A stretch of 64,000 nt of DNA. It comes from Psammoneis japonica. Its lineage: Eukaryota. The stretch lies in the NCBI GenBank assembly GCA_008632985.1, contig QPGO01000034.1:325311-389310 (forward strand), written 5' to 3'. Shown here one piece after another: positions 13,190 to 57,249 of this stretch (positions are counted from its first letter, which is position 1; each line of letters begins with the position of its first letter). The translations under genes were made by a program, and so were the position numbers. The notes under the pieces are model-generated. The model saw nothing but the letters and a program-made list of their open reading frames with translations. It was not told where the DNA came from and ran no database searches.

Positions 13190-13270
13190 TCCACAACAAT
13201 GACAACAACAATGACAACAAAACAACTGCAGCAACAACAGCAGCAACAACAACAACAACAAAACAACAAT
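13190..13270. repeat. Imperfect (CAA/CAG)n microsatellite
   Basis: cacaacaatgacaacaacaatgacaacaaaacaactgcagcaacaacagcagcaacaacaacaacaaca. Confidence 0.8.
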
Positions 13271-22200: not shown

Positions 22201-24114
22201 CTTAGTAGTGACTGTGTGATCAGCACCATGACGAAGGAGTAACTCAACTGTGTCAGGAAGCCCCTTGGTAGCGGCCTGTAGCAAAGCGCTAAGAGTCGGA
22301 TCGGCCTCCTCCGTAGGCGCCCCCTCCTCAAGCAAGAGGCGAACTACATCGTCGTGTCCCTTGTATGCCGCGATGCTTAGAGGAGACCAGCCTGTGTCAG
22401 TACACTTACAAGGATCTGCTCCGGCTTTGAGCAGTGCTTCTACAGCATCGGCTTGCCCGTGATTGGCTGCCGTCAACAACGGTGTTTCCCTCCATTTGTT
22501 CAGTGCATGTACATCGGCGCCGCCCTCCAAGAGCTGCTTCACAGCAGAAAGATGGCCTTTTTTCCCGCCTGCACACGCTTTGTGCAGAGGCGTACTCAAG
22601 TCCTCGGTGACCCTGCAGTTCACAGGAGCCTTGTCTTTCAGTAGCATTGTAACGATTTCGTCGTAGCCCTAGAGTTAAAGTCGTACAGTAAACAAGAAGC
22701 AAAATTAGGAGACGTGCAAAGAAGCAGTCGGGATGGAGCCCGACATTTTACTCACCTTATGCGCAGCAAAAGTCAAAGCACTCCAACCTGCCTCGCTGCA
22801 ACGAGCTGGATCGGCCCCGTGCTTGAGCAGCACCTTTACTGCAGTTTTATGCCCATTGTTAGCAGCGATGAGAAGAGGAGTTTCTTTCCATTTGTTACAT
22901 GCGTTTCCATCTGCGCCTCGCTCCAAAAGTAAGTGCAACACCTCTAAAGAGCCGGTTATTGCGTTCGATGAACACGCCGTATGAAGCGGGGTGTAGAGGT
23001 CATCTTTGAACTTGCAGTTGACGCCCGCCCCCTGCGCAAGACACATCTTGACGGCATCTGCTTTGCCTTCTTCCACAGCACATTTGAGGTACAGTTCTGC
23101 ATCTTCAGGGTCAATGTTCACAGACGACGATTTGACGGTTACTGATGCCCGTACCGTTAGCGAGTCGTTCGAAATGAAACCATCCTGTTGAATTCGGTCG
23201 GACGTTATGAATTGCGACCAGCCCCAATCGATAGCCTTGGGACAGAGTTTGAATGTCTTGTCTGGATTTCTCTTGGCGTATCCCATGGTTGATCCTTTGG
23301 GGTGCTCCAGCGTGAGCACGTAGCTTACTGCTTTCTTCCAGCCAAAAGGTAAATCATCAGCATCCGCTACCTATGAGGAGAGAATAATCGTTGAGGAATG
23401 ACTAGGAGCGATGAAATTAGCGAGCAGAAGACGATACGAGACGAATGCCAAGCGTACCTGCAGGAACAAGCTCAGGTGATGATTACTAGCACGACCATTC
23501 CCATTGACGTAGACAATCAGCCGCCAACGATTTCCACAATCATCCACGGTTGTTTCTGAGTACTCCGCCTTTTTACACCCCGACTCCCTTTTCTGAGAGT
23601 AATTTTTGATTATATGAGTAAACTCGCATGTCGACTGTTTTGTTTGAGGACTCCATGATGAAGACGGCACCTGTGATTCTGCTGCTTCGTCTGGCGGTAG
23701 CGCATGATCTGATCCGCCAAGGTCGTCAACGCTGTCTATGGCTGCAGCCGCCCTTGAGGCTGGCTCGTTGGAGTTGCTTCCAATAACTTGTGATGCTCCG
23801 TCCAATGGTTTTGTCCCGTCAGGTGGCTTTTTGTTTCTGTTGTGTGACGAATCGTCGTCTATATCGCTGCCGTCGTCGTCGTCATCATCATGGTATTCAG
23901 AAGAAGCAGTAGCACCTGAGGCTGATAGTGATGAGCGAGGGCTTTCACGTTGTTCGCTTTCTCCATCATCTAGCTGTGACTGCTGGTTGCCCTGACTGTG
24001 GTTTTGCTTTTGCTCGTCATCTCCTAAAGCCCCCGATGCTGCGTTTGCCTCTACTGTGTCATTGTTTTCCTCGTTGGAAGGCTGAGAATCAGGGTTCGCC
24101 GGACGCCACCGCAT
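19291..24114 (-). CDS. MATH domain + ankyrin repeats + coiled coil + C-terminal PCIF1/CAPAM-like methyltransferase-fold protein (3 exons)
   Basis: Exons 24114-23458, 23370-22756, 22668-19291 with GT..AG introns. MATH: FTHIIKNYS, GNRWRLIVYVNG, HLSLFLQ, DWGWSQFI, FISNDSLTV. Multiple TPLH/TPLL ankyrin repeats. PCIF1-like motifs at about 19780-20960. Confidence 0.9.
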
Positions 24115-30553: not shown

Positions 30554-31080
30554 TGCACCACCCGTCTCGCCAGTTCTCCTGCGGCCCTCTCTAGTTGCAG
30601 CATCTAGAGAGTCGCCGAAAAATTTTTAATGTGGTGGACTGGAATGGCTTCACTGGCAGATGCACAAGCCTCATTCCCACAAACCCAAGCTGGAGCGGCA
30701 GGGCCAGAGAGTGGAAGAGGTGGTGGGAGCGCGTCAAAGCCATCTGAGACGGCCTGCTGCTGCTCTTGGTTTGCTCTTCGGAAGAATGAGAAGAGCAAGT
30801 TGCTTTTCAAGAGAAAAATGGCCATTGCTCTCATTGCTCGCGCGCACGCATTCAAATTCAAAAAGGCCACAAATGACCCAATGGTCAGAAGGGGTCATTG
30901 CCTCGTCGAACTCCACGAGGTTGGTGGCTTGCACCACCCGTCTCGTTGGTTCTCCTGCGGCCCTCTAGCTGCAGCAACTGAAGCTGCAAAAAACATTCAA
31001 TGTGGTGGACTGGAATGGCTTTGCTGGTGGATGCACAAGCCTCATTCCCAAAAACCCAAGCTGGAGCGGCAGGGCCTTCC
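30554..31080. repeat. Dispersed repeat family in A-B-A arrangement, with further copies at about 50855-51052 (direct, B) and 52268-52470 (inverted, A + start of B)
   Basis: Shared strings ggactggaatggct...gatgcacaagcctcattccca...aacccaagctgga (A) and gaagaatgagaagagcaagttg...gaactccacgaggttggtgg (B). Confidence 0.85.
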
Positions 31081-31523: not shown

Positions 31524-33011
31524 CAGGGACATGAACATCCAGTCAGACGGGATGTGACACGCCCACGTGGCGGCTGCAGGGATCTTGTGCCCTTTGCGTT
31601 GATTTTGAGGTTCGTCCAATGCACACACACACACACAAAAATCAAATGTTAAAAATTGACACAGGCAATCCCTTTGACAGGCCAAAAGTGAGGGAAAACA
31701 AAAAATCAAACACCACGCAAATGTCACAGTGCATGCTGGGTTGGGGCTGCCAAATGTTCAGCCAAAAGTGCTCCAGCACCAGCAGTTGATTCCAAGAAGC
31801 CGCGGGATGACAAAGACAAAGGTGATGAGAAAGGTGCGCCCAACCCAGTGTGGAGCTGCACAGCTCGTGAGTGCAAAGCAGCTCAAAACAACCTCTGGTG
31901 CAGCAAGAAGGACAAGAAATGGCAGAGCCCACAACACCGGAATTACACTTTGTTCTTTTTCCTGCACAAGAGCGCACTTGAATCTTCACAATGGACCCAA
32001 GTTCATGCTGGCACTGCACTCCAATCAGTCTGACATCGAGGTCTCTTCTCCAGCATTCGTGGGTTTTGGCTCCACATTTGGAAAGATGCAACTGCACGGA
32101 AGATCGCTTCTTCAACAAAGGGTGACTCACTTTGGTGAAGAAATGGAATTAAAATTTGGAATTGCATTGGATGGGTTGCTGCAACAAAGAGATGCCAGGT
32201 GCGAAACATGCAAAGAACCTTGCCAATCTAAGTGCCGGTCGACGGAAACTGCCACTCGCCACAGACGCGGGAAACCAAGCCTGAGGAGAAGAAACAGAAC
32301 CAAAAAATTAGAAATGCACTGCATGGGGTGTGGCAACAAATGAAAGAGACACCAGAGATGCACCCTCTCACTTTGGTGCCGGTGCATGTCATGTGTGCCA
32401 CTCCTGCGATGGATGCTGAAAGTCGCTCGGATGGCTTTTTCACAACGCGGCATTTCTGAAGGAACCGAATTGCATTGTCAATTTAGTTGCTTTCACATGA
32501 GTTTCTTGCGCATGAGTTTCAATGAGCCACTGAAAAGAGAAAAAGGAAGACGATTGCAATGAGGGGCACGGCAAAATTTGACGCATCCAATGCAATGAAA
32601 TGCAGCAACACGACGAGAGGCGTTCGGCAAATGCTCACACACCACAAGAAGCAACAGATTGGAGCAGCAAGAGGAGCACAATTGCATTTTCAAAATGCAT
32701 TCACTCACAACAAGCCAATGGAGAAGTGAGTGCATCCGCACATGACCACGAGGGAGAGCAACAGTGGAATCACAAAGGAGAAAACAGCGGAACGAAGGCA
32801 TGTGGCATCATGTCGGTGTGAGGTGTGAGGTGTGCGTGTGCGTTTCAGTTTCCCTCACTTTTGGCCCATCAAAGGGATTGCCCGTGTCAATTTTTGACAT
32901 TGCATGTTTGTTCGTCTGCTGACATGTTGATGAACCTTAAAATCAACGCGAAGGGCCCATTTTTTTTGTGCCGCGTGTCACATCCCGTCTGACTGGACAT
33001 TTGTGTCCCTG
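31524..33011. mobile_element. TIR DNA transposon, about 1.5 kb and probably non-autonomous, with an 8-bp TSD (hAT-like termini)
   Basis: Imperfect TIRs of about 170 bp beginning CAGGGAC and ending GTCCCTG; identical flanks CCCAGGGG at 31516-31523 and 33012-33019. Removing it restores the YR frame (..SLDTPLGAHFKNN..). Confidence 0.9.
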
Positions 33012-33552
33012 CCCAGGGGAGTGTCAAGCGATGCACCATGAGTGCGCAAGTGTTTCACATGTCAGATGAGGGCTTGTGCAGGGCACAGGTTGGGGTGTCC
33101 TGACAAGCCAAGGCCTGATGCTTTGCCAGGGACTCCATTTTTTTTTTAGTGGTGAAGGTGAGGGTGGCAAAGTTTGCGGCATCAAGTTGCGCATGAGTGG
33201 CTTGAAACGTGTCAAGGTGCGCACCCCCTGAGGACAAGCATGTGCCGGCCAGCCAAAAGGGGGTTGCATTGGATGGCGCAGCCACATGTTCTCCCGGGCA
33301 AAGTGAGAAAAAGAAGGTGATGGCTGTCCTCATGTTGATGATGGCTTGCATGCCAGGATTGTTGCTGATGGCAGCGGCGCGCATGATCCACAGGAGGACC
33401 GCTGCTGGCACTGGTTTGACACAGTCAGGAGGTGGATCCTGCTTCTTGCAGTGACAGATTTGGTGGGCAAGGTGGAAATCCATGCCACCTTGGGATGTGT
33501 GGCGGGGATCCGGGGCCCCCATTGCAGCAAACGTTTGCCCAACCAAGTGCAC

Positions 33553-33828
33553 TGATGGAAATTGAAGGCAAATGGCAAGAATTCAAACAACAACTCCTTG
33601 CTGCTGTCTAAACAGCAGATGAGTCTCCGCTCAGAGACCGTCACAGGAGCCGAAAGACGTGTAAGTCGGTGTGATCGGGCCACTGTTGTTGTTCTTGTGA
33701 GCCTTGTGGCTCGAAAGCAAACTACATCGCGCGTGAACGCGCGGAACTAAAGCACACAAAACTGTGCGCGGAAAACTAAACAGCGCGCGATGCTTCGCGC
33801 GCATCCAAATCCTGTTCAAATCCTGTCA
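33553..33828 (-). repeat. 3' LTR of the Copia element
   Basis: Direct repeat of 40388-40663, same length, 14 nt mismatches by manual alignment. Confidence 0.95.
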
Positions 33829-36800
33829 CTCCCCAGTTTGCTTGAGGAGCCACAGAAACAGATTCGACTTCGGATGGAATGAAGTTCCAGAACATGAGGG
33901 GTCGGAGAAGGTCCCAGATTGGGGAGCAACCCCAATGCTTGCTGAGAATGTCAGCAGGGTTGCGGGAGCCTTCGATGAAGTGGAGCTCAAGGCAACCAGA
34001 GGCAATTGCCTCACGCACACGGTGGAACGATAGTGCGGTGTGTTGCTTGTGTAACTTGGAGTGCGGGATGGTGGCACTGTCTACAACCGACTTGTTGTCA
34101 CCGAACATGTAACTGACATTGCGGATCGGGACGCCAAGGCAGCGCAGGGTGATGCGCAGGTCGACAATCTGCTCAACACAATTCCTTGCAGCAACAAATT
34201 CAGATCCGCAGGTTGCAGTCTCCACGGTGGCTTGTTTCTTGGAGAACCAATCAGCCGGGAATTTGTTGAGGAAGTGGAGCATTCCCATGACAGAGCGCCC
34301 GGTGAGCATGCAATGGTGCAAGTTTGCATCGACGCAGTGGGTGGCAGTGACGAACTTGCCAAGGGGCGGTGGAGCGTCCTTCGGGATCATCTCTTCTGCT
34401 TCACCGTACACGGAATGCATCCATTCGTAGGCCGGAGCAGGGAGATCCGAATGGTCGGGCTCTTCCGTGCGAACGCGGAGAGCACCATGTCGCATCTTGG
34501 AGAGGCACCCACAGACGCGTTTGGCACGATCCAAGTGGCCTTGACGGGGCGCAGCTCGGAAGCTAGAGAGTGACATGACGGCCGTGGTGATGTCAATTCG
34601 ACCAAGGGACACTGCCCATTGGAGTGAACCAACAAGAGACTGGAACTTGTGAATGCCATCGGGTCCCAGCAGTTCGGAAGTGTCCAGTTCGGGGTGGTCA
34701 CCCTTCTCTAGAGGTGACAGGGCGTTGGTGGCAGGTTTCTCCCCAAACAGTCGGGCGTAGCTGTCGACCATGCGCTCGATGTACTTGCGCGGAGACAGGC
34801 ACAAGGTTCCGTCGGGGTCCCGGGAAAAGTCGCAACCCAGATGGAACTCAATGGGTCCCGCACCCTTGAGCTTGAACTTGTGCTTTTCCGTGAGAGTGTC
34901 GACGAAAGATTGAGGGTCCTTCATGGCAATGGCGAGGTCATCCACATAAACGGCAATGTGTTCACAGTGGTCGCCGTTCCTGCGCATCCAAATGTCGGGT
35001 TCGGCGCGGCAGGGGAAGAAGCCTTCAGCTCGCAGGCAGTCGGCAAAGCACTCGTGCCAGCGGAGACCGGAGCTGCGGAGTCCATACAGTGCCTTGTGGA
35101 TGACAAGGATGTGTCCTTTGAGTTTGCCAAATTCGGGTCCAGCTACAATGTAAAGCTTCTCCTTGGTGGTGGCTTCAAGGCAGGCATTGCCAATGTCGGT
35201 GGCCCATGTCTCCAGCTTGTTGAGTTCGGCCAGGAAAATCATCAGCCGAAGGCCACGAAGGGAGACTGCTCCGGAGTAGACACTGTCGACAGGTACGTCC
35301 GTGAGGTGCCCGTCGGCTACGAGTCGTGCCTTGTGGCGACCGTCGTGTTTCACGTCGCACACCAGGTGCACTCGGATCTTCTTGTGTCCCGCAGGAGGAG
35401 TGGAAGACTTGAAGGGCCCGCAGTCATGGAAGACTTCGTATTCGTCGAGTTGGTCCATCTCGAGATTAGTTGCGTCTCCCCACTTGCGGTTGCCGTTGCG
35501 TTCGTCTGGTGACATGGCGTGTTTGTAGTTCCGGGGAACTTCGTATCCGCACTTGTGGCGAGGTGCAGTGCGGAAGGAGCAAAGCTTGGCTTGGTTGGCC
35601 ATGCGAAATAGCTTCTTTTGGCGCCTCGCGATGGTGCGGAACCGCTTCCATCCATCCGTGTCGAGGAGTCCGTTCTCTCGTGCATAGATGGCACAGGTGA
35701 CGGGGTCGTCCTTGGCGATGATGGCAAGAGGCTCGGACGTGATCTCCCCACTTTCCCATTCAAGCATGATGTTGTAGCTTGAGCCTTTCCAGGTTGGGTC
35801 GTGAGGCTTCAGAGGGCCTTCGTGTGACACGATGCGTCGAAATTTCCAAATGGTGGTGTCTTCGTCTTCTTGCTCAATGTGATTCATGATGTCATTGTGG
35901 GCAAGGACTTCCTCGCATTCGTCATTGTTGACAGAGCAGACGAACTTGGTGAGCTCGGGATTGCCGTTCACTTTCCATTCGTGGTCTTCGACGGCCTTGA
36001 CGATGCGAGCTCTGTGGCGTTGTCCGTCCTCTTGTGGCTGCATGAGGAAGGTACGTCCAATGATGTCTTGCAGATCGAAAACTGGCATCTTGGGTGTCCT
36101 GATCTCCCCATCAGGAGAATCGACGGGGTTGTCGTCATGGCGAGATTTGATGATGGGTTCAGGTGGCTCCCCATCAGGAGGATCAAGACGCAGGTTTCGA
36201 ACGGCAGGATCGGGGGTGGCGGAGCGAACGTTGGACCGGCAGAGGATCTTCTGAGTCTCGTCAGATAGAATCTTGAAGGTCATCTGGTGGCCGACGTGCT
36301 CAGCAATGCCAACGAAGCGTCCACGCAACTCACGAGATTCGGACGGCCAATCGGAGTCATCGAGGTGGAAGTGCACTGGTTCCCACCAGTGAAAGCGAAG
36401 CAATGGGCTGATGTCCGGGGTGGATCCAGTGAGAGTCTCGAGGGGCGTGCGCCAGTGGAGACGTGGGGATGCTGCATGGTTGAGCATGAAGCACACGTGC
36501 ATGAGCGCCAGCAGCCATGTGTGGGCGGGCGAACCAAAACGGTCCATGACAGTGTTCGCCATGCGCTTCACAGTCTGGTGTCGACGCTCGGCAAAGTTTT
36601 GGTGTTGCTGGTGAGGCTCACTTTGCCAGCTGGAGATGAAGAGGGCGCGTAGGATCCCGAGCACTTTGTTGCTGATCTCAACTTGAGCACGGTCGCCAAT
36701 GAGTTTGGATGGGGCACCACGTTCACGGATCTGATCCTCGAGTGTGTTGACAAACTCTTTGTCCGTCTCAGTGCCGCAGACGTCAGTGACGGTAGACTCG

Positions 36801-39475
36801 GTGCCAACAAACAGTTGGGCGCTGGTGCAACCAGAGTCGACGGCCGGGGTGTCGGCACAAACGGTGTCAGTGGCGATGGGCTCGTTGCGACGGTGCACAT
36901 TAAGGGCGGGGTTGGGTGATTTGAAGGCCTTGCGAAGGTGTGCACCGGCGGGCATGCGGGCGCACTGCGTGGTGCAGTCAAAAGTACGACGGACCGCATC
37001 GGCAGGCAGGAAGCCAAAGTGAGGCCGAAGAGACTCGAAGGGGGGGTCCTTGGGCTGCACAGTGCGCTCCGGAGGTGGAACGTCATCGCCCTTGGGGTCA
37101 ATCGCATGCAGATGACACTCGTAGAACACGTCGTCGTTCGGAATGAGGTGATCATCGAGGGCGGACGCGTGATCGGCAGACAAGGAAGCGGACAAGATGG
37201 TCTCGTTGACAACGACACGGTGACGGCAGTTGCCGCATTCATCAAACAGGTTGGCAGTGGGATCGTCCTGTTTGTCAGAGATCGCGTCGCACCACTGGTC
37301 ATCGTCAGTGACAGAGTGATCGAGGACGGAAGGGTCCCATGTGTCATCACCGGTGAGGATGACGTGGGGCAGGGTGTCCCATTCGGCGTCAGTGTAAGGT
37401 CGCATGGCAACACAAGGCAGGCCAGCCTTGATGTCAATGGGGATGACACAGCCATCAGGAGTGGCAATGCGTTGCAAACCGTTGGGCACCTTGACAGAGC
37501 GATCGTTGACATCCTGTTTGCACCATTCGAGCTGGCCGCAGGAATGGATGGTCTTGCCCTTTCCCGTGCATGCGCACTGATGGAGGATGGCGATGACGGG
37601 ACCACGCTGGGTCTCAATGACGGCACCAGCGGTGACAATGGGGATGTCCACCAATTGATGATCGTCAATGCCCTGAACGTCGACTTGGCGAGAGGTGCGT
37701 GCGATGACGCGGACGTCGTCGCCAGCAATGCCGCCGTTGGCCCCACGATCGACTAGAGCGCCAGTGCGTGTGGAGCGATGAGCAGAGGCAGAGCAAATGA
37801 CATTGTGGTTGTCAACGCGGCGGCAAGTGCGGCCGTTAAGTTCCATGTCATCTGCAGAAGCTGGCGGGGTAGAGGAAGCGGCGGATGGCCCCGGTCGACT
37901 GGCATTGGGGGCTTGGTTAGGAGACAACAGACGTTGCAGATCACCGGGTGGCAGTGGCTTGCGCTTGGTGAGGTGCGCCAGGACAGGATTGTCCGAAATG
38001 GCGTCCACATGTGCAGCGGAGTCACCACAGTCAGCAGGAGTCGTGTTGGACAAGTTGACATCACCGTCACTCCCAAGGTGTTGGTCGTGAAGGTTGGCCG
38101 TAACAGACTCATGGCAGTTGCTGGCTCGCGGGTTGCGGGGAGGCGGACGAGAGTGCTCAAGGATGATTGCCTTGGAGGAATCGGGCAACAAATCCCAGAG
38201 CCGTTGGTGGTCGGGAGGGAGACGTCTCCATTGGACACCGGTGAGGCTGGGACCACGGGTGCAGGCAGCATTGGCTTGAAGGACGTCAACGTCGCTGTCA
38301 ATGTCGTAGAACACATCGTTGGACGGTTCCTCGGAGCAGACGTCGTGTGCGCACATGGCGCGTCGGGGAGCTCGAGGTGTCGTCTTGGGTTGAAATGTGC
38401 TGTCGCACTGAGCTGCCGCGGAGAGGAGCAAGCCACAGCATTGATCGCATGTGAGGCTCTTGCCACTCTGCGTACGATGCTGATCAGCTTGGTTCTTGAC
38501 AGCACGGAGTTCCTCGACAGGGTGCACGGCATTCTCGAGCATGACGCGCTTCTGTCCTTCAGAGAAGTGGTCGCTGGCGGGGATGAGTGCCTCGCACTTG
38601 CGCAACTGATCTTGCCAATGAAGGATGAACCCGTGGGTCGGACCTTTCCAAGTGCCATCACCAAGACGTGCGGTGGTGAGGTGCGTGAGCAGGGTGGAGG
38701 ACTCGATGGATGCACGGGTGGAGGCAAGCGCGCATTCAGACAAGGAGCGGTGGACGGTCTGTGCGCCAGAGGACCCCACATTTTCGCGAATGAGAGCCTT
38801 GCCCTTGTCGGTGAGAAGGATGCGTTCGAAGACGGCGAACATGCACTTTTGCTGTTCAGCAAAGAGCAGTTTGTCTTCGGGGCTGGTCGGTTTGTACGAC
38901 GAGTCTAGAATGCACTCGACGTCTTGGGCACGGGCTTGTGCCACAAGTGAGGTGTGCCAAGTGTGCCACTGCTTGTCGGATTTGAGAGCCGTGAAAGCGG
39001 TGGGATCACGCTTGATGCCTCGCTTGAAGTCTCGCACCGGGTCGCGTGCCTTGGTCAGGTTGGTGACATGTGGAGGTGCAAGGGGTGAGCTGCCGATGGA
39101 CAGAGAGGACATGCAGTCCGGGCTGAGGCGGTGGGCAAGGAACTCGTCATGCGCGAACAAAGAGGAGTCATTGGCAACGTCAAGACCTTTGTGTGCTTTG
39201 ACAATGTACAGGCTAACTGGTGCTGCTAACATGTTCTCATAACCACGGGGCAAAGGGATTACATTGGTGCCGTTGTCGCACTCAAGCGAGTCGATTTGGG
39301 ACGGCATGAACGTGAACAGTTCCTGACACGAGTCCGTGCCGTCTTGGGCCAAAGCCAAACGAAGAGGACTCCCAGCACCTTGGGCAAGCACGGTTCCAAC
39401 AACGTGCTCGAAACCATCGGTTTGTTGCTGACGAGTGAGAACCATGGCAGACAAAAGTGGTGTCAGGACAATCAA
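33776..39475 (-). CDS. Copia gag-pol polyprotein, open but heavily missense-mutated
   Basis: PR ALVDRGANGG; IN ATDT..GDRAQVE..QNFAERR; RT KHDGRHKARLVADG, KALYGL, AVYVDD; RH VDANL, ETATCGSE, GDNKSV, NPADILSK. Confidence 0.93.
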   Translation of the reverse strand: MIVLTPLLSAMVLTRQQQTDGFEHVVGTVLAQGAGSPLRLALAQDGTDSCQELFTFMPSQIDSLECDNGTNVIPLPRGYENMLAAPVSLYIVKAHKGLDVANDSSLFAHDEFLAHRLSPDCMSSLSIGSSPLAPPHVTNLTKARDPVRDFKRGIKRDPTAFTALKSDKQWHTWHTSLVAQARAQDVECILDSSYKPTSPEDKLLFAEQQKCMFAVFERILLTDKGKALIRENVGSSGAQTVHRSLSECALASTRASIESSTLLTHLTTARLGDGTWKGPTHGFILHWQDQLRKCEALIPASDHFSEGQKRVMLENAVHPVEELRAVKNQADQHRTQSGKSLTCDQCCGLLLSAAAQCDSTFQPKTTPRAPRRAMCAHDVCSEEPSNDVFYDIDSDVDVLQANAACTRGPSLTGVQWRRLPPDHQRLWDLLPDSSKAIILEHSRPPPRNPRASNCHESVTANLHDQHLGSDGDVNLSNTTPADCGDSAAHVDAISDNPVLAHLTKRKPLPPGDLQRLLSPNQAPNASRPGPSAASSTPPASADDMELNGRTCRRVDNHNVICSASAHRSTRTGALVDRGANGGIAGDDVRVIARTSRQVDVQGIDDHQLVDIPIVTAGAVIETQRGPVIAILHQCACTGKGKTIHSCGQLEWCKQDVNDRSVKVPNGLQRIATPDGCVIPIDIKAGLPCVAMRPYTDAEWDTLPHVILTGDDTWDPSVLDHSVTDDDQWCDAISDKQDDPTANLFDECGNCRHRVVVNETILSASLSADHASALDDHLIPNDDVFYECHLHAIDPKGDDVPPPERTVQPKDPPFESLRPHFGFLPADAVRRTFDCTTQCARMPAGAHLRKAFKSPNPALNVHRRNEPIATDTVCADTPAVDSGCTSAQLFVGTESTVTDVCGTETDKEFVNTLEDQIRERGAPSKLIGDRAQVEISNKVLGILRALFISSWQSEPHQQHQNFAERRHQTVKRMANTVMDRFGSPAHTWLLALMHVCFMLNHAASPRLHWRTPLETLTGSTPDISPLLRFHWWEPVHFHLDDSDWPSESRELRGRFVGIAEHVGHQMTFKILSDETQKILCRSNVRSATPDPAVRNLRLDPPDGEPPEPIIKSRHDDNPVDSPDGEIRTPKMPVFDLQDIIGRTFLMQPQEDGQRHRARIVKAVEDHEWKVNGNPELTKFVCSVNNDECEEVLAHNDIMNHIEQEDEDTTIWKFRRIVSHEGPLKPHDPTWKGSSYNIMLEWESGEITSEPLAIIAKDDPVTCAIYARENGLLDTDGWKRFRTIARRQKKLFRMANQAKLCSFRTAPRHKCGYEVPRNYKHAMSPDERNGNRKWGDATNLEMDQLDEYEVFHDCGPFKSSTPPAGHKKIRVHLVCDVKHDGRHKARLVADGHLTDVPVDSVYSGAVSLRGLRLMIFLAELNKLETWATDIGNACLEATTKEKLYIVAGPEFGKLKGHILVIHKALYGLRSSGLRWHECFADCLRAEGFFPCRAEPDIWMRRNGDHCEHIAVYVDDLAIAMKDPQSFVDTLTEKHKFKLKGAGPIEFHLGCDFSRDPDGTLCLSPRKYIERMVDSYARLFGEKPATNALSPLEKGDHPELDTSELLGPDGIHKFQSLVGSLQWAVSLGRIDITTAVMSLSSFRAAPRQGHLDRAKRVCGCLSKMRHGALRVRTEEPDHSDLPAPAYEWMHSVYGEAEEMIPKDAPPPLGKFVTATHCVDANLHHCMLTGRSVMGMLHFLNKFPADWFSKKQATVETATCGSEFVAARNCVEQIVDLRITLRCLGVPIRNVSYMFGDNKSVVDSATIPHSKLHKQHTALSFHRVREAIASGCLELHFIEGSRNPADILSKHWGCSPIWDLLRPLMFWNFIPSEVESVSVAPQANWGVTGFEQDLDAREASRAV

Positions 39476-40387
39476 TTCTGGTTGGGAAGCGAAGGCAGAC
39501 TCGAAACTTGGGTGAGAATGGACTTGACTTGAAATGGACTTGACTTGAAATCTTGAACTGTCTTAAAATCAGAAGTCGCCGGGCTTTGTTGTCCCGTTCG
39601 TTGTTGGGTGCTAAACTTCCTGTCCGGACCGCAGAGTTGTGCCAGCACGTCCGAACCCGCAGCCAGCGGCGCTTTGGGTTGCTTGCGAGCGGAGCAGCGG
39701 GTTGTAAACCCCTGCAGGCAAGCTGACTAGAGGTGGACAAGACCCCCGAACCGTTCTTGTTTTACATCGGTTGGATTTCCCGATCAGGCTGGCCAGTTGA
39801 CGCAGGCGTCAGGCGCTGTGGACGAACGAACAAACGCGGGAAAGCACCCTCGCCCCAACGCAGGCTGCAATCACGGCTGCTTGCTCTCACAGTCGTCCTC
39901 GTGGACCTGGCAGAACTGCAGAGCACCAGCAGTCCGGGGCAGATCAGGTGCAATGGACTCGGTGTGCTTGCAGAGTGGCAGCAAAACCGCAGTCCGAAGA
40001 GTGGATAAAGGTTCTTGGCCGTGAAGACATGCATGTGTGTGTGCATGTCTTCAGCGACTAAGATCCTTGAACATGTGGGGTTCTTGACCGTTGACCGAGG
40101 AATGGGCATGTCAAGGGATGTTGATCAAGGATAGACTTGGATATGACCGTTGAACATAAGTCTTCAGCGATCAAAGGTGGCACAATCAATCCAGATATCC
40201 AGCGGTAAGGAGACTTGACGGTGACGTTAACTTCCTGCCGATGCCCTGGCCATTGAATGCGCGTAGACTTGCCGATGTATGTAGAACATATACGGAGGTC
40301 CACGTAGAATTGAAATAGCGTCGTTGGCAAATCAACGACGACGATGGCGGTTGCTCAATGGGTTGACAATGAGCAAGACTGTTAATC

Positions 40388-40663
40388 TGACAGAAATTGA
40401 AGGCAAATGGCAAGAATTCAAACAATGACTCCTTACTGCTGTCTAAATGGCAGATGAGTCTCCGCTCAGAGACCGTCACAGGAGCCGAAAGACGTGCAAG
40501 TCGGCATAATCGGGCCACTGTTGTCATTCTTGTGAGCCTTGTGGCTCGAAAGCAAACTACATCGCGCGTGAACGCGCGGAACTAAAGCACACAAAACTGT
40601 GCGCGGTAAACTAAACAGCGCGCGATGCTTCGCGCGCATCCAAATCCTGTTCAAATCCTGTCA
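40388..40663 (-). repeat. 5' LTR of the Copia element
   Basis: TGACAG...CTGTCA termini; direct repeat of 33553-33828. Confidence 0.95.
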
Positions 40664-43600
40664 TGCACGGCATCCTCAGCGGTTTGTCCCCAGATGGGAT
40701 TGCCAGGGGGTGCAAGTTCTCCAATGTGGCATCAGTGGAGGAAGACTTGGAAGAAGACAACTGGATCTTTGATGTCTTTGAGGAGTGGGTTGATGGCCAA
40801 AGTGGTGCAGAAGTTGCGCCACTTGCCCCAATGGGTGTTGGTGGCAGAGGCTCTTGAAGAGGTGATGCCGAGTTGCACAGCATGTTGAGCAGTGTGGAGG
40901 TCATGAAGGAATGCAGTTCTGGTGGTGGCATGCAAAGACGCCAGGAGAGTGCATGTGGACAACACAACATGTCAAAGTGGGACAAAAACTCACGGTTGGA
41001 GAGATGCTGCAGATGAGAGGCATCATCGGCAGCGGTGTTCAGGTGACCAGGCCAGCAGCTGTGGAGGCCAACATGGTGGTGACAGCATTGGTGCAGTGCT
41101 TGGAACTGGAGGAGTTTGGTGGTGGGCTTGATCATTGTGGTGGAACCCTTGTGTTGCCAGTGCATGGTGCAGGAGTTGTTGGTGCATGACAGGTTGGTGC
41201 GCTCCTGAAGGTCAAAACAGTCTGAGGCACAGTGGGGCTGGGTGACACTGCCGGCAAGTTCCAGGTCTGTGTTGGCAATGGGGCCATGTGGGTTGGAGCA
41301 TGTGGATGGGCGGTTTGTCGCTGCCTTTGGAAAGGGGAGTTGCCACACTGTGGGACCCGCGTTGTGTTGGCGGTGGCCCCTGCCATTGCCAAATTGGAGA
41401 GTGGCAGTGCGCGGTGCAGTGGCGGCTGTGGGGAGGAGGACACCTCTGGCACCGTGGCTGGCTGCATCATGGCAGCCAGCAAGAGTGGGCTGCAATGGAG
41501 CCAACTCTTGGTGGAGTTTCAAGTGTGGATTTGAGCTCTTGAAAATCGTCAAGTGCGGCATGTGCACCAGTGACAATTTGGACCCATGAGTCCGGAGTGG
41601 TGTGTCGGAGATTTTCTTGCAGCTCTGAGCAGAGACCCCGAGAGCCAGGAACAGCAATTCCTGGCAAAACCAGAGCTCCCCAAGAAGCTTGTGATGCTCT
41701 GTGACGGTGGCCCGTTTGTGGGTGTGGGGAAAATCCTGGTGCAGCACAGTGTGGAGTCTTGCTCAGCATTGTGCCATGAGGCAAATGGTCATGGAATGGG
41801 CATCAATGAGCCAGCCAAGAACTTCTTTCTCTGCAGACCAAGTTGCATCACCCTGTTTGAGCTTTTTGATGGAGACAGGCTCTTTGCGGGTGGGAGCATC
41901 TTGTGTGTTGAGTGGTCGGAAAACATCATCAAGGGCCCAAAGGATTGTACGATGTGCTTTGCGACGGGCACATTTTGATCCTTGTGCAGCCCCAATGAAA
42001 TCATCAGCACAGTTCAATGCATTGGAGGAGGCGGCGGCGTGCATGGTTGAGATGCGGGTCAGGCACAGATGGCAGTGGAATGGCATCTTGAGTGCATGGC
42101 CGTGGTGGTTGGTGCTTTGGTGGGCAGCTGTCCAAAAGGTGTTCGAGTGGGAGAGGTGGTGCTTGAACATTGCAGAGGAGGTCCTGACTGGCAAGATCTG
42201 CAACAGTTTCTGCTGCTGTGCAGAAAAGTGGGGGTGAATTCGCCCAACCCATTGGCAGTTGGATTGGAAGGGCGACAAGTGGTGGTTCCCCAGGCAAGTT
42301 GGGAAACACGACACCCAACAGTGGCACTCCATTGGGTGCCAGTTGCGTGTGATGGTGGCCATTGGCTAGATCTGTCTTCATGATGTAGACCTTGCCCTTC
42401 CTTGGGTCTGCAAGGAGGATCCGGTGTTGAAGGCGGTCAAAGGCCCATCCAAACTGCATGGACTTGACGGCTGTGTTGGGCTGTGTGGCAGGGTTAAGAC
42501 CACAGAAGGTGTGGCTGACAACAGGCCTGGGTTGGCGGCCATGTTGTGGGACAACACCAACAGGACTGAGAAGCAATGTCGGGTTGTTGTGCACTTTGGC
42601 ACATGGGACCACAATCCAGAAGCCTTTGTCAACCATGTCGGCCATGTCATCTGGTGGGATCTCAACATGCTGGCAGGCAGATTTGTGAGGTCCCCCATTG
42701 ACACTGGCATCTGGCTCAGCTGATGTCCAGGGCACGTCTGCCACAGTGACGGGCGTGCCCCTGTGCTTGCAGGCGCACAGCAGGCGGTGTGCTGGATGGC
42801 ATTGTGTGTTGTTGTGTGGCTGGCCCCAATCACCTCGACCGCTGCACAAACGCAGCAAGCAGCTGAGTCCTTGGTGATGCAAACAGCAGCATCATTGGAA
42901 ATGTGCTCACCCAGTTTGTCACTGTGAATGGTGGCAGTGACATCCTGTCCACGAGCAGTGGGGCAGGTGCTCTGCCTCTTGAAACTCTCTGCAGTCGGGG
43001 GTTGTGGATGCAACAGTGCTGGAGCTTTTGCTGGGAGAGGCTCTTGGCACCAAGTCCCTGCACTTGGACCATTGCCAAAGACCCATTTGGTCTTCCAGTT
43101 TTCCTCCCCCCAGGCCAAAAAGCATGCCTGTTCCACCTCGGTGTGGTTGTTGTGGTGATCATGGCTTGCACCGCAGTTGGTGTTGCACTGGCCTTTGATG
43201 TGGTGTGGGTTGCAGTGCACGCGGCCTTGATCATCTTTGGGGAGGTCAATCCCTTTGCGGGCACAGTGTTGCTTGACTTCACGGGATCACACATTGGGGC
43301 GGTCATGCAGTGGGGCAAAGCACTCAGGTGCAGGCGGTGGAGTTGGGAGATTGGGAGCGAACGCTGCTTGCGAGATGGGTTGGGCTGGTTGCATTGATGC
43401 AAGCAGACTCCAGTGCCAATGCAGGGTGCCTTTTGCTGCTTCTAAGACAATGCCAAGAGGTGTGAAGGGGACCGGCTGGTCGCTGGTTGCCTGCGTCTTG
43501 AGCCAGTGTCAGATCTCCACCTGCACACAGCATTGAAAATTGGCTGGCAGCGTGGGATGGTGCAAGCACTGGATGGCAAGCTCATTCATGTGTCTGTCCA

Positions 43601-46712: not shown

Positions 46713-46918
46713 GCTCCACCACCCCTGTCATGACTTGGGCTCTCAGTGGTGCAATGCCATCTGGCATGACCACACCAGTTGCTGTCCCACCCTGATCAAT
46801 CAGGACTTCCTCTCTGCTCCACCACCCCTGTCATGACTTGGGCTCTCAGCGGTGCAATGCCATCTAGCATGACCACACCAGTCACTGTCCCACCCTGATT
46901 AATCAGGACTTCCTCTCT
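46713..46918. repeat. 103-bp tandem duplication
   Basis: gctccaccacccctgtcatgacttggg...aatcaggacttcctctct occurs twice, with four differing sites. Confidence 0.92.
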
Positions 46919-47935
46919 GAAGATGATGCTGTGCGTTGGTTGTGATGTCTGAACAACTTGAGGATGGATCTGAGTGCTGCGGTCTAATTTAAAACAGCTC
47001 ACATTTCCCGCACTTCACCGTGTCATTTTGACCTGCCTCGGAACACCCCCGAACACTTGTGCGTTTGTCAATTCCTCACAGGGGCTGTTAGACGGCCATG
47101 GGAGCTGCACATTCAGTGCTTCAAATGCCACTTGTCGACCCATGCCCTGTTGTCAGGTCGAAAAAAACACCAATTTTTGCTAAAATCGGGCTTCTCATGG
47201 GAGATCAGCGGCGACTTTCCGGGAAATGCCGACAAGTGGCATTTGACTGGCTGCAGACATGTCTGCAGTCATTGAGATAAAAGTCGCGCATGGTCACACC
47301 TGTTGTTCAAGCATTCTAGGGTGTCTGGCGAACGGACAAAGTTCGACCCATCGCTGAAATTTTTTTTTGCGAACGCGCGCGCATTCACTGCGATGCATCC
47401 GGGTTGTTTGTGCAAAAATTGCGAGCTCCCAAAAAACAGACTGCAGCACGTAGATCCATCCTTAAAGATTTTCTTCAATGACTGCAATGGGCAAATGCTT
47501 TTTGACAACAATGTGACACAGAACCAACTCAAGGAGACACTGTCCAACGAGTGTCCTGAAGGTGCTGTCGTCATTTCACTGGATGTGATGTTTTGTGTGC
47601 ACACCCACAAATGGAGGCATGGAGCATTCTTTGTTCCTGCCTGTCCAGACGATCTGTCATGGGGAGGTGGTGTTGATGGGCACCCACTTCACAAGCACAC
47701 CAAGAAAAGAGATGATGCTGTGGAGCCAAGGCATTCCACCAGGAACGACCCAGGGTCTGACATCAAACAAAAATTCAAGCCTGCCAAAAGTGGGTGACTT
47801 TGCAATTCCCCTTTGTTTGCAATGTGACTTTCTTCTGTGCAAGCAATGCATTGTCAATTGGCCCTTTGCACAAACCCACTTTTCACCTCTGCCAACTTGC
47901 TGCTTCACCAGTTTCGCATTCCAACAGCTGCTTGT

Positions 47936-48736
47936 TCAAATGCTTGCTGTGTTGAAATCATGGACCAGACACACCATGTTCCTTCGATCCGAGTTTGTTT
48001 TGTCAGGCAAAGCTCGGTGCAACACTCTTGCATCAAAAACAAATGCAGTGCCTGCTTCTCCAACCAGCAATTGTTTTTCCAAACCCAACCTGACCAAGTG
48101 TCTTTCGCGTTCCTTCTCATTCAATGTTGCCTCACAACCATCCGGCCACATCTCAACTGCACCATTGTGCTCCATTGTGTCATCAAGGAACAGAAACATG
48201 GCGAAAATTTTGTCACCAGGTGACGATTTTGTTTCCACGTGATCGCGATGAATTTCCCCCTTTGACCAGAAGTTTGATCTTGAACTTGAAGCAGGAGCAT
48301 TTGCTGCTGTGTGCCGGGATGTCTTTCTGCACAAATCACCTGCTGGGGGAAAGCCAGGAATCAACTCCAACATTTTTTCTGCCAACTCAATGCCTTCCGC
48401 CTTGTCCTTTTTGTCAATGGCAAACTCACCAACAAAACAGTGTCCTTCCTTCTCTTGCTTGCTGCTTGGTGCCTTGTTTGCCAGTGTTGTCATCTGGCTG
48501 AGCAGGGGTTGTGGTGTTTTGAATTTTTGCAAGCAGCCTTTTTTCCCTTCCTGGTGCACTCTTTCTTTGGACCCGGCCGTCTTGCTCTTGACGACATGAG
48601 ATTTCATTTCACCCGGTTGTGTCAGCAACTTGCCATGTTTCTGACATGATGTTGTCGGCCAACGGGCAAATTTCTGGCATCCGTTGACAGAACACTTCCG
48701 CGCCATTCTCTGAAAATGCCTGTTCCACCAAATCAA
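47936..48736 (-). pseudogene. PhyH-like 2OG-Fe(II) dioxygenase with an N-terminal CX4C..CX2HG zinc finger, inside the transposon block
   Basis: CSVNGCQKFARWPTTSCQKHG; EIHRD; FLFLDD..EHNGAVEMWP; GEAGTAFVFDARVLHRA..N.DRR. No Tyr in 266 aa. Confidence 0.65.
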
Positions 48737-49506
48737 ATGGTGCCCAGTCTTTTTTTTTTTAAGTGGAACAGACCCAATTCAGCGAAAGTCCGCATCCATT
48801 GCTGTGCAACAAAAACGGCTTTCTCGCGAAACATGTGTTGCCAATGGCAGTCCATCTGTTGGGTGCACCACAGACATTTTTTTCATAAATGGTCCCCTGT
48901 GACATGATCTTCGTTGATCCTGTTTGCTGCATGATCTCATCAAATGGGTCATCCCAGCCATCTCAAAAGCACAGAAAACAATTTTGTTGCACACTGTCTT
49001 GCCAGTGTTGTTGTGAGACATTTTCATGTCGCCGCCGCGGCAGACACAAAGGAACAGCCACCATCCACCATTCATTCCGCACCACAAACAAACTCTTTTG
49101 AAAGAATGCATGCAATGAACAATTGCCAATGACAGGCATCACTTTTTTGTCAATGCACCCATCTGTCAACAGAGCAATTTGGTGTCACTTTTTTGTTGTT
49201 GCAACTGTGTGTCAACAAAGTGATTTGGCATCACTTTTCCATTGTTGCGCACACTTGTCAACAGAAGAAGTGTCAGTTTTTTGTCAATGCACACATCTGT
49301 TGATGCATGCCTTTGGCATGTTTGTGCACTCAATGCCAGCCTGCACATCATTGTGACATGAAGCACATCTCCCGCAGCAAACCACATTCTCCCGAATCTT
49401 GTCCAAGTTGCTGATCAACTCATGTTGAGCAGCAAACAGACAACGTTTGGGCAACTCTGTCTCTTGTCCTCCGCAGCCTTGTCATTCCCTTTGCAAAACA
49501 ACAGCC

Positions 49507-50145: not shown

Positions 50146-50989
50146 GGCCGATGTGCAGAGACAAAGGAGTTGAGAAGAGAATCAAAAGGAAACAGCATGT
50201 GCAGCAACAATCACTTGGGGACACAGCGAGGGCAGAAACACAGAGAAACAACGTGCGATCGACATGGAAGGCATCGTGGATGGAGGGGAAGGAAGGATGG
50301 AATGGGCAGGGAGAGAAAATTGAGAAGACAGCTGGAATCTACATTGACAGACACAGGCGGAGATTTTGATCCAGAAAGTTGATCAACACACAATCCAGAA
50401 ATTAAAACAGAATTAAACACACACATGAGGCTTGTGGGATGGGGGGGTGAACAGCCAAATTGAGGAAAACAGATGTTTGTTGTTGAACATTTCAGAAAAG
50501 CTGACTTGACAAATCAGCACGATCTTGGATTAAAGGGAGAGAATGTTGGTTTTCATTTCAAGAAATCTTGACAGCCAGTGCAACACCTGGATCATTGGTG
50601 TCCCAGATGAAGGGGTTGTTGCGCACCTGCTGCAGGGGCCATGGGCACTTGCGGTGGTGGTGGCACATTCACCCTGGCCCCTCCCCCATTCGCTTGCAGC
50701 ACCAGAGGCACTTGCTGGGGCACCATGTTGGGATCCAGCACATTGGCCGCATCCTGAGCTGCTGGCACTGCTGCTTGCCAATTCATTGGGATGTGCTTGC
50801 AGACTTCCTGCAAACAAACAAGAGACAGCAGAAGGCATCCTGCACGGCAACGACAGTGTTAAAACTGTCTGAGACAGCCTGTTGCTCTTGGTCTGCTCTT
50901 CAGAAGAATGAGAAGAGCAAGTTGTTGCTCTTCAAGAGAAAAATGGCTGTTGCTCTCATTGCTTGTGCACATGCGTTCAAATTCAAAAA

Positions 50990-52262
50990 TGGCCACAAAT
51001 GACCCAACGGTCAGAAGGGGTCATTGCCTCGTTGAACTCCACGAGGTTGGTGGACGATGCAGTGGACGTGTGCACCCCCCCCCCCCCCCCCCCCCAGGGT
51101 GAAGCTGATGATGATGCACCAATCCTTGGGGGCAACTTGTCAGTGCCAAGGGACCTCGCCAAAAAGTGCAATGAAACTGCCAAGTTGGAAATGGGAGATG
51201 AATGCAGACAAAACTGTCATCAGAGGAGACTTGCATGTTTGGCCAAGTTTTGGAAGGAGAAGGATCCTGAATGTCACTCTGTTGGCATCAGAGAGGTCTC
51301 TGCTGAAGACCTTGGTGATCCAACCAAGTGTGCCACTTCAGTCAGCACCAAGAAGACCTTGTGCATGCATGTGTGAACAACCAGTTTGCATTTGCATTTC
51401 TTGGTGTTAAACAAGAGAAAGGCTGATGGAGAAAGCTCAAGTTGTTTGAAAACATCCAAGAAAATGCAAAGATGCCACAATGTGGGGTGCCCAGATGGCT
51501 GAAGAGGGCTTGCCTGAGAGCTTCCACACAAAGGTTGTTGAGTTCCTTGCTGGGTGCAAGAAGGAGCATGCTCAAGCAACGAAGACAGGAGATGCAGATG
51601 AAAACTCTGCTGATCCCATTCCCAGCACAGAAGCCAACAATGTGTTTGTGTGTGGCTCTGGACCACTGCACAGTGGAATTTCATGGCAAGGGGTCAGCAT
51701 CCATGGACCCCTTGTGGTGGATGAAGAATTTCAGGCTGGGTGCAGACAGCTTGATTGGAAAGCATGCAGAAGCAAAGGCCAACAAGTCTGGAGAGAGGCT
51801 TTCAGAGAAAAACATGTGTGCCAACCCACTGGATTGGATGATGTGCTTTTGGACAGGTGCGGGCATTCACTGTGCTCTTCATGGCAACAAATTTGTCAGC
51901 AATGATGCTCTCTTTTTGGACAAAAGTGTGCAGGAAGGAACGCGTGCCACAAAGCATTGTGTGAGCAGATTGCTGGAATTTTGTGAGCCCACTTGGAGGA
52001 AGTCGCAAATCACATGGATCTGAGTCATGTGAGTCCATGTGGCACTCAAAAGAGCTTGTCAACCTGCACCTTGAATGGGGCCACTTCCCCCCCATCAACT
52101 CCAGCTGTTGCACATTGTGGAGAATGGACTGTTGGGAGTGTCCTTGATTGCCGCCGGCACTTTGGCAGCATTGGTGGCCAACAACTTGGGTGCATTCTTG
52201 CTGGCTTGGATCCTGACAATGCATTGTTTGACATGCTTCCACCTCATTGGAAGCTTGCAGAT
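50990..52262 (+). mobile_element. Degenerate Crypton-like tyrosine recombinase, 3'-truncated
   Basis: DSLIGKHAEAKANKSGE...NMCANPLDW..CF..G.G, PCGTQK, PPSTPAVAHCGEWTVGSVLD..HFGSIG.Q.LG.ILAGL...FDMLPPHW resemble stramenopile Crypton YR motifs (from memory). Confidence 0.7.
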
Positions 52263-56672: not shown

Positions 56673-57249
56673 TTTCATCGGAGGATGAGAATTTACACCC
56701 AACAGGGAGATTTATGAGAATTGCATGGTGTGGAAGTAGTTGTCTTAGAAAACGATTTAGCTCTTTACGTCACATGATTTACTGTTGTGGTCAGATTCCG
56801 CCGCCGTACAGCACTGTTCTCTCGTGGTTACAGCATCAACAAGAAGTGGTGGAGCAAGTGCATTGGTAATCTCGTGGCTTCGTCACTCTCTGAAGCATCC
56901 TTCACAACTTTCTCGAATGCTTTCCAATCCGCTAGAATGGCTTCGACAAAGATGATGTCATCCATTTTGCTCTTCTCTTTCTGCACACGCTCATGACCCG
57001 CTGTCAACCAAATCCCAATGAAAAGTTCTAGTCTGGAACAATGACTCCAAAAAAATCAGATCTAACTTTTAAGTGCTGTCACTCCATTGCCAGCCATGCC
57101 AGCGCCAGCCAACCCACACTTCCAGTGCACTGCACCAGTGCGGCAGAAGGGGAAAAGGGCTGGCCGTTCCGCCCTTCCAAAATGAGTGGCAATGGAACGA
57201 GTGCCACAAAGCGTGAGTCGCTTCGCTTCTTTGATGTTGGCTTTAAGGT

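Follow-up and report, generated by a model that had tools for sequence, protein, structure and literature searches.

Repeat-induced point mutation (RIP), a process of ascomycete fungi, changes C to T, converting CpA/TpG to TpA, which enriches TpA and creates stop codons; in animals, APOBEC3 (on retroelement cDNA) and ADAR (on repeat RNA) act before integration, on one strand, and leave the two long terminal repeats (LTRs) of an element alike. In diatoms, according to Hoguin et al. (2023; PMC9998398), transposable elements (TEs) are CpG-methylated (DNMT5a) and decay by deamination, and the main text of a preprint by Mettrop et al. (bioRxiv 10.64898/2026.01.13.699255) describes hypermutation in Bigelowiella natans that is specific to TpA and strikes integrated viral DNA. 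Here we analyze a 64-kb stretch of contig QPGO01000034.1 (the window, meaning all 64,000 nucleotides), in which a structurally complete Ty1/copia LTR retrotransposon lies on the minus strand at 33553-40663. We consider it likely that this young element underwent post-insertion, DNA-level hypermutation of TpA to TpG or CpA by its host. The finding is real and belongs to the just-described type of genome defence, new both in its probable host lineage and in its class of target; the evidence comes from this one assembly window and from contigs of one public sample.

In B. natans, the mutations were seen in real time. Mutation-accumulation lines yielded 302 new nuclear single-nucleotide mutations, 231 of them in integrated giant-virus and virophage regions, and 230 of these 231 were A->G or T->C, all on TpA, at ~6e-7 per site per generation; the process was episodic, with rates of about 1e-7 to 1e-6 per site per generation (Mettrop et al.). 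Low-TpA coding sequences were enriched in reverse-transcriptase and DDE domains, and the authors' hypothesis is an ADAT2-like DNA adenine deaminase. The main text of the preprint makes no mention of LTR, retrotransposon, CpG, copia or context.

The element studied here has two LTRs in direct orientation with TG...CA ends and a 5-bp target-site duplication (TSD) around them, as Ty1/copia elements do. Since the same TSD, TGCAC, stands on both sides, both LTRs belong to one insertion. Its polyprotein carries the copia-type reverse transcriptase RVT_2, and the best 120 of 1676 homologues all have PF07727. The parts of the element are as follows.

33548-33552: left copy of the TSD, TGCAC, read directly; the same five bases on both flanks
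33553-33828, minus strand: 3' LTR in element orientation, TG...CA, 276 nt (repeat finder plus comparison)
33829-33840, minus strand: candidate polypurine tract, adjoining the 3' LTR on its upstream side; purine-rich (…GGGGAG when read on the minus strand), suggested by its sequence
33776-39445, minus strand: copia polyprotein frame, starting at Met-40, the start of 48 of 60 relatives
33776-39562, minus strand: stop-to-stop open reading frame of 1928 codons, extending into the LTR
34760-35395, minus strand: reverse-transcriptase domain RVT_2, residues 1390-1601 (PF07727, E = 4.7e-26)
40388-40663, minus strand: 5' LTR in element orientation, 276 nt (repeat finder plus comparison)
40664-40668: right copy of the TSD, TGCAC, read directly

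The purine run beside the left LTR fits the minus-strand orientation. In a Pfam search with the polyprotein of this mutated copy, RVT_2 was the sole match, with integrase, protease and gag undetected; likewise, no primer-binding site was identified, in that the bases adjoining the 5' LTR do not start with TGG, although no tRNA comparison was made. As a side observation, the 7-kb element is overlapped by 24 frames that reach 100 aa or more and use both strands and several reading frames. Such long stop-free "ghost" frames, here and in the depleted blocks described below, exist because TAA and TAG are nearly absent, and an open frame in this setting is no sign of an intact gene.

The repeat finder returned one direct-repeat family only, 33552-33828 versus 40387-40663 (277 nt, 95% identity). 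The LTRs proper, 276 nt each, align without gaps and differ in 14 bases at nine sites: five TG/CA, two TG/TA, one TA/CA and one A/T transversion. By position in the left LTR, the differences are these.

33556/7: TG in the left LTR, CA in the right
33591/2: CA in the left LTR, TG in the right
33600: TG in the left LTR, TA in the right
33613/4: CA in the left LTR, TG in the right
33662: TA in the left LTR, CA in the right
33670/1: TG in the left LTR, CA in the right
33673: TG in the left LTR, TA in the right
33690/1: TG in the left LTR, CA in the right
33772: A in the left LTR, T in the right (transversion)

This ungapped comparison reproduced exactly the counts of sites, bases and classes in a first-pass annotation made from the letters of the stretch, as did recounts of its 21 CpGs per LTR (21/21 common to both LTRs) and of its four TAs common to both LTRs (each preceded by C). 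That annotation had taken every mismatch to be compatible with an ancestral TpA and the CpGs to be intact. The former holds for eight of the nine sites, the ninth (AA versus TA) being a transversion that lies outside a TA->TG/CA process; the latter holds for the LTRs, but not for the internal region, where this copy has at least five private CpG losses (see below). When 14 differences were placed at random on 276 sites, five adjacent pairs were reached in just 36 of 200,000 trials, and pyrimidine-purine steps, present at 142 of the 276 positions, contain all 13 transitions (0.514^13 = 1.8e-4). None of the nine sites involves CG, despite the 21 CpGs in each LTR. Collapsing the four pyrimidine-purine dinucleotides into one raises LTR identity from 94.9% to 99.3%. 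At the eight TA-type sites, the LTR at 33553-33828 has five TG, two CA and one TA, and that at 40388-40663 has four CA, two TG and two TA. Thus both LTRs of a single insertion carry derived states, which upholds the earlier proposal that each was hit independently after integration. This use of the LTR pair as its own internal control is absent from the main text of the B. natans preprint. The warning that dating from LTR divergence would be inflated proved justified as well: the divergence is 14/276 (5.1%) as found and 1/276 (0.36%) without TA-type changes, so that an age based on it would be ~14-fold too old for this element.

The direction of change is given by outgroup proteins. Searching a database gave 1676 homologous polyproteins, with 71% identity for the best; all are metagenome proteins or proteins mislabelled as bacterial. 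We aligned the polyprotein with the first 60 listed homologues longer than 1800 aa, out of the best 120 of the 1676, and counted a column as conserved when at least 70% of the 60 relatives had the same residue, which gave 868 columns. The copy in the window has 1.04% Tyr, compared to a median of 3.87% (minimum 3.03%) in the 120 relatives; 3.01% Cys, compared to a median of 0.95% (maximum 1.61%); and 4.62% His, compared to a median of 3.54%. Thus none among the best 120 relatives has as little as 3% Tyr (lowest 3.03%) or more than 1.61% Cys. At the 48 conserved Tyr columns, this copy has 21 Cys, 10 His, 13 Tyr, 3 Phe and 1 Trp, so that 35 of these 48 columns are changed, compared to 89 among the remaining 820 conserved ones (Fisher P = 1e-21). 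Tyr is encoded by TAY, Cys by TGY and His by CAY. Replacement of Tyr by Cys or His therefore gives the direction as TA->TG and TA->CA, on both strands; with 21 Tyr->Cys and 10 Tyr->His changes, and with TG and CA states in each LTR, either strand can be hit. With 31 conserved Tyr residues lost, the predicted protein of this copy must be dead, and its frame is still open because a TA->TG/CA process cannot make TAA or TAG.

The hits were not evenly spread along the polyprotein. Retained Tyr residues cluster at residues 1258-1719 (12 of the 13 retained), such that 12 of 23 are kept in the reverse-transcriptase region and 1 of 25 elsewhere (P = 2e-4 in a post hoc test). There is a slight excess of hits on the coding strand (Cys:His = 21:10, P = 0.07). 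We also observed that, along the polyprotein (39280-33928, minus strand), 13 of the first 16 conserved Tyr columns are Cys, with a run of His following at 36580-35899; hits are patchy, with perhaps some strand-coordination of the Cys and His runs, and the succession of Cys and His events gave no significant result in a runs test (10,450 of 100,000 shuffles, P ~0.10).

Copies of the same family provide a second polarization of the changes. A search of shorter proteins for fragments of this family gave nothing above 69% identity, and hence no within-family protein copies, and a metagenome scan for a 24-base LTR word gave 0 matches. We used contigs of the public sample that contains the stretch (runs X1-X4), placed on 33300-40386 at 80% likeness or more, which came to 14,071 pieces in X1. 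Summed depth in X1 was ~441,000 over the LTR bin and 42,000-164,000 over internal bins; because this is far above the ~52 of the exact single-copy flank contig, the retrotransposon family is very abundant. Variable places are transitions in 407 of 481 cases (X1), and for 40 of the 482 variant rows, corresponding to 34 sites, we had details. These 34 comprise 17 single exchanges between TA and TG or CA, six adjacent TG/CA pairs, seven sites involving CG and four others. In all six of the adjacent pairs, the share of the TA-type letter equals or exceeds that of the CG-type letter; at 35556/7, C makes up 42% and A 81% of depth, so that TA accounts for at least 38%. At the four pairs that lie within codons, 60, 50, 45 and 45 of the 60 relatives have Tyr, and none has Arg (CGY). 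Residue 1808 is ~59% Cys, 39% His and 2% Tyr in the family and Tyr in 60 of 60 outgroup proteins, and at residues 1818, 1602, 1346, 1340 and 1493 this copy has Tyr and 32-90% of family depth is Cys or His. It follows that separate hits struck the same ancestral TAs in different copies of the family. In the LTR, A makes up 47% of family depth at 33671; at 33681, both LTRs of this element have CA and 77% of family depth has T, giving TA, which makes 33681 one of the hidden sites that the model predicts, with both LTRs changed the same way. Among the sites listed, the intermediate at TG/CA sites is thus TA and not CG, so that the finding which the first-pass annotation had named as fatal to its reading, a family with CG there, is not borne out, and the ancestral TA that had been proposed from the LTRs alone gains the support of both the outgroup Tyr columns and the TA intermediates of family copies.

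The extent of TpA loss indicates when the damage occurred. From five different double hits, three single hits and four untouched sites in the LTRs, the maximum-likelihood hit probability per LTR is 0.63. Loss in the coding region is 31/48 (0.65) of conserved Tyr columns, and a composition-based estimate is ~0.62 (TpA observed/expected (o/e) of 0.23 in the element, compared to a baseline of ~0.6). LTR-LTR differences log only events after LTR formation, and so the match between LTR loss and internal loss places nearly all the damage after insertion of a largely unmutated parent.

The process is patchy. All TA-type LTR differences lie at offsets 4-138, and three of the four shared TAs are at offsets 172-226, in the CpG-rich half that has no TA-type change, so that region and context are confounded. 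The first-pass annotation had read a hint of context preference into the four CTA sites, and this did not hold in the coding region, where 11 of 17 conserved cTAY Tyr codons were converted (Fisher P = 0.52) and a CTA->CCA change occurred at 35508; we rejected CTA as a protected context there.

The window beyond the element, scored in 64 bins of 1 kb, is divided between normal stretches and depleted blocks, the latter occupying about half of it.

8870-14300: second depleted block; TpA o/e 0.03-0.08, CpG o/e 0.05-0.26, CpA+TpG o/e 1.85-2.06
30630-52930: older TpA/CpG-depleted block, host of the copia insert; outside the element TpA o/e 0.02-0.16, CpG o/e 0.16-0.70
33553-40663: the copia insert, less depleted than the surrounding block; TpA o/e 0.11-0.37, CpG o/e 0.58-0.96
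57071-64000: third depleted block, running past the window end; TpA o/e 0.00-0.09, CpG o/e 0.00-0.28
Depleted blocks overall: TpA o/e 0.00-0.16, CpG o/e 0.00-0.70, CpA+TpG o/e 1.5-2.1
Between the blocks: normal stretches with ordinary eukaryotic genes; TpA o/e 0.36-1.1 (mostly 0.5-0.7), CpG o/e ~1 (0.75-1.25)

The blocks are discrete, with sharp edges at about 8870, 14300, 30630, 52930 and 57070, where TpA o/e passes from 0.5-0.7 to 0.0-0.1 within tens of bases, and their neighbors are normal genes (PWWP, histone H1, syntaxin, RING, MATH+ankyrin, HEAT, amidohydrolase and M2/M3-type peptidase). One example is the bin at 62001-63000 (TpA o/e 0.00, CpG o/e 0.03), and 26 of the 64 bins pass the two thresholds of the B. 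natans preprint. The total of pyrimidine-purine dinucleotides is nearly the same in the baseline (23.8%), the old blocks (24.1%) and the element (25.1%); because this total is unchanged, the blocks resemble ordinary sequence whose TA and CG have been turned into TG/CA. That the insert is less depleted than its surroundings is expected of a younger insert under a continuing process. Repeats other than the retrotransposon show the same classes of change. In a 103-nt tandem repeat with two copies (46713-46919), all five differences are pyrimidine-purine transitions (one CG/TG, one TA/TG, one CA/TG pair and one CA/TA), and collapsing pyrimidine-purine steps raises identity from 95.2% to 100%; for the direct repeat 30731-30927 versus 50856-51053, it rises from 89.4% to 95.0%.

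A parallel loss of CpG is also visible. Changes of CpG to TpG/CpA at 35045, 35050, 35218, 36072 and 36572 are private to this copy, CG being retained in 90-100% of family depth; for Arg->Cys at 35050 and Pro->Leu at 36072, the outgroup residues confirm the change. The element has 513 CpGs (o/e 0.93), and loss of at least five of them amounts to ~1%, compared to ~63% of TpAs. Thus CpG decay acts on the element too, far more slowly than TpA loss.

Several side observations concern the blocks themselves. The genome also has further copies of the flank at 33300-33536, where contig depth sums to 534, compared to ~52 for the exact contig. An inverted repeat, 30635-30799 versus 52264-52421 (81%), lies together with the 30731/50856 pair near both ends of the 22-kb block, which as a whole may represent a large single element, bounded by terminal inverted repeats, that copia later entered; similarly, a 70-nt inverted repeat (31628-31697 and 32849-32918, 86% complementary, 1151 nt between the arms) may mark 31628-32918 as a small element with terminal inverted repeats. 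Pfam searches with 61 frames of at least 130 aa from the depleted blocks gave only weak PhyH/2OG-oxygenase, C2H2 and methyltransferase matches, and the depleted-block PhyH frame and the PhyH-like gene at 4925-6016 are not copies of each other. The 87 TAs that survive in the blocks are mostly in TTA/TAA contexts: counted on both strands, the 5' neighbor is T in 99, C in 43, G in 19 and A in 13 of 174 cases, compared to a baseline of T 19%, C 25%, G 31% and A 25% (χ2 P = 9e-37). Resistance of this context to the process would explain the bias, as would a new origin of these TAs.

Some results weigh against independent, post-insertion hits at ancestral TAs. Only two LTR places (33671 and 33681) are among the 40 of 482 variant rows with details, so that most LTR sites are polarized by analogy with the internal region. 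At the start of the LTR (33556/7), the family has a CA form at a depth of 5926, with no TA form shown there. At 34031, 34758 and other sites, ~90% of family depth is a single product, where independent hits on random strands predict ~50:50; at such sites mutated copies may have been copied onward, or there may be a strand bias. Finally, a homogeneous-rate model fits the LTR counts only moderately (χ2 = 5.5, P = 0.019), which means that susceptibility differs between sites or regions; with the four shared CTAs set aside, the one-rate model fits well (P = 0.89).

We considered whether the TG/CA pairs might descend from methylated CpG, an ancestral CG having been deaminated on opposite strands in the two LTRs, because CpG decay is evident in this DNA: differences within six other repeat pairs of the window include 11 CG/TG and 10 CA/CG (21 involving CG, compared to seven involving TA and nine CA/TG), CpG o/e falls to 0.00-0.6 in older blocks, and there are the private CpG losses of this copy. 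However, a one-rate model with CG as the ancestor of the LTR sites (five double, zero single and 21 untouched) is rejected (χ2 = 43, P = 5e-11), in agreement with the first-pass annotation, which had thought CpG decay an unlikely source of these pairs. Moreover, CG ancestry is unable to yield the three TA-versus-TG/CA sites, the outgroup residue at in-codon pairs is Tyr and never Arg, and TA is the intermediate in excess in all six family pairs listed; we give this explanation hardly any credence. Just as implausible is an artefact of sequencing or assembly, such as miscalls at a modified base in TA. Such an artefact could find support in that 0.64 of the sampled 31-letter words of the stretch, and no more, were found in the best run, and that at several places no contig has the letter of the window, but missing words are accounted for by the dropping of rare variants during contig building. 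Furthermore, TG/CA/TA polymorphism is present in X1 k-mer contigs at depths in the tens of thousands, the longest X1 record is 315 kb, implying accurate reads, and neither the Tyr->Cys/His pattern nor kilobase-scale blocks with sharp edges resemble random miscalls; an artefact is thus extremely improbable.

Editing before integration, by ADAR-like A-to-I conversion of element RNA or by deamination of single-stranded cDNA, with LTR differences arising from the order of strand transfer, seems to us very unlikely. The LTR pair by itself is compatible with editing of reverse-transcription intermediates, ADAR prefers a 5' U (Discussion of Mettrop et al.), and the mild coding-strand excess of Cys over His points the same way. 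RNA editing, however, predicts identical LTRs and A->G on the coding strand only, and we found that the opposite strand accounts for 10 of the 31 Tyr events and that both LTRs have derived states of both strands. The same classes of change also occur in repeats that are not retroelements, such as the 103-nt tandem repeat, depletion is stronger in the older host block than in the younger insert, a sign of continuing action on resident DNA, and a loss per LTR that nearly equals the total internal loss leaves little space for hits before integration. We are equally doubtful that the LTR differences came from gene conversion or recombination with diverged copies instead of separate hits on this copy. 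The family is very abundant, and both TG and CA forms are frequent in it, but the identical TSD speaks against crossover between elements, conversion tracts should import differences that are not TA-type (only 1 of 14 is of another kind), and this explanation still requires a TpA process to create the family variants. A remaining alternative keeps the same process with another chemistry, in which the T of TpA is modified (for example, oxidized to a 5-hydroxymethyluracil-like base), mispairs with G and gives T->C. TA is its own reverse complement, and T->C and A->G at TpA are therefore inseparable by sequence; in addition, a frame for a 2OG-Fe(II)/PhyH-type oxygenase (47939-48778) lies in the depleted block, a coincidence of place only. 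The sole published proposal for the signature is, however, the ADAT2-like adenine deaminase (Mettrop et al.), and we think the other chemistry unlikely. Of CpG decay, artefact, editing before integration and conversion between copies, none accounts together for the identical TSD, the changes of both strands in both LTRs, the like changes in non-retroelement repeats and the outgroup Tyr residues.

We therefore return to post-insertion hypermutation of TpA and suggest the following course of events. A young Ty1/copia element would have inserted once, leaving an intact 5-bp TSD, and a DNA-level hypermutation process of the host itself would afterwards have struck it, turning TpA into TpG, or into CpA if the other strand was struck, through an A:T->G:C transition at the A of 5'-TA-3'. 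Roughly 63% of TpAs would have been converted in each LTR and in the coding region, with CpGs almost untouched, and as no TAA or TAG is created, the dead copy would retain its full-length open frame. The same process, combined with a much slower CpG->TpG/CpA decay (probably deamination of 5-methylcytosine), would have driven the older repeat blocks to near-zero TpA and CpG. As to chemistry, the most likely route, by analogy with the proposal for B. natans, would be a TadA/ADAT-like enzyme that prefers a 5' T and deaminates DNA adenine to hypoxanthine; the frames of the 64-kb window yielded no deaminase domain. Presumably, the process recognizes repeats or foreign DNA, perhaps through repetition, chromatin or RNA guides.

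A wider reading, which we put forward tentatively and as somewhat less probable than its contrary, is that TpA-directed DNA editing, a "reverse RIP", exists also in diatoms, is old or widely spread in the stramenopile-alveolate-rhizarian (SAR) group, and is chronic on resident repeats; taken as a whole, it includes sharply bounded chromatin domains, CpG methylation alongside, erasure of stops, ghost frames and falsely old LTR pairs. The assignment of the host comes from the gene at 19294-22668 (minus strand), whose organism-named homologues are all from diatoms (Attheya, Seminavis, Cylindrotheca (2), Nitzschia, Staurosira and a Bacillariaceae metagenome-assembled genome) at 36-42% identity; the best homologue without an organism name, for this one gene, is 59% identical. 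Among the relatives of the polyprotein, we also observed P0289, a copia polyprotein of 735 aa from a public metagenome assembly, met in the shorter-protein search, whose identity to other members of the set is 68% or less and which has 12 Tyr, seven Cys and four His at 24 conserved Tyr columns, at sites that differ from those of this copy, and P0333, with one Cys and five His at conserved Tyr columns, where the median of the other relatives is 0. By its sequence, P0289 may reflect the same process in other hosts and, as it was hit independently, hints at further hosts.

Should the host be a diatom, then a hypermutation defence reported since 2026 from one rhizarian alga also occurs in a main group of ocean primary producers, and its distribution, enzyme and targeting are testable in tractable model diatoms. 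The LTR pair provides a genetics-free assay that separates TpA editing after insertion from CpG decay and is usable on any assembly. Furthermore, dead elements with full-length open frames, in which Tyr->Cys/His recoding hides domains, mislead the annotation of genes and TEs, because the open frame is retained and, as here, only RVT_2 is detectable in a 1928-codon polyprotein. If the "reverse RIP" reading is true, genomes would be filled with long ghost frames and falsely old LTR pairs.

A literature search for the TpA signature in diatoms and for genome defence by TA or A-to-G changes, covering few subscription journals, found only the B. natans preprint, and in the text available of a diatom mutation-accumulation paper (PMC6604790), the words "TpA" and "transposable" are absent. 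The system described here resembles that of B. natans, as presented in the preprint, in its products (exclusively TpA->TpG and TpA->CpA), in its confinement to discrete foreign or selfish regions, and in a long-term footprint poor in TpA and rich in CpA+TpG; as in B. natans, the changes are A:T->G:C transitions at TpA (13 of 14 LTR bases; 31 of 48 Tyr columns). It differs in that the host appears, by homologues of one gene, to be a diatom and not a chlorarachniophyte, and the target is an LTR retrotransposon together with repeats that could not be annotated, not giant-virus and virophage insertions. Depletion is also deeper here (TpA o/e 0.00-0.1, compared to 0.45 in the B. natans viral region), older blocks lose CpG as well, unlike what is described there, and our evidence consists of standing sequence differences, compared to de novo events in B. 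natans. With CpG methylation decay in diatoms, as reported by Hoguin et al., the process shares TEs as targets and TpG/CpA as products, and such decay is the probable cause of CpG loss in the older blocks; unlike it, the process affects TpA, and CpG decay in the element is about two orders of magnitude slower. With APOBEC3 and ADAR it shares clustered, deaminase-type transitions in retroelements, and the 5' U preference of ADAR matches TA, but here both strands and both LTRs were hit separately. Like RIP, it makes dinucleotide-specific transitions in DNA on both strands, inactivates repeats and mobile elements where they lie and makes copies look more diverged; in outcome it is the opposite of RIP, in that TpA is destroyed (o/e 0.23 in the element), CpA/TpG is enriched, Tyr is lost and stops are erased.

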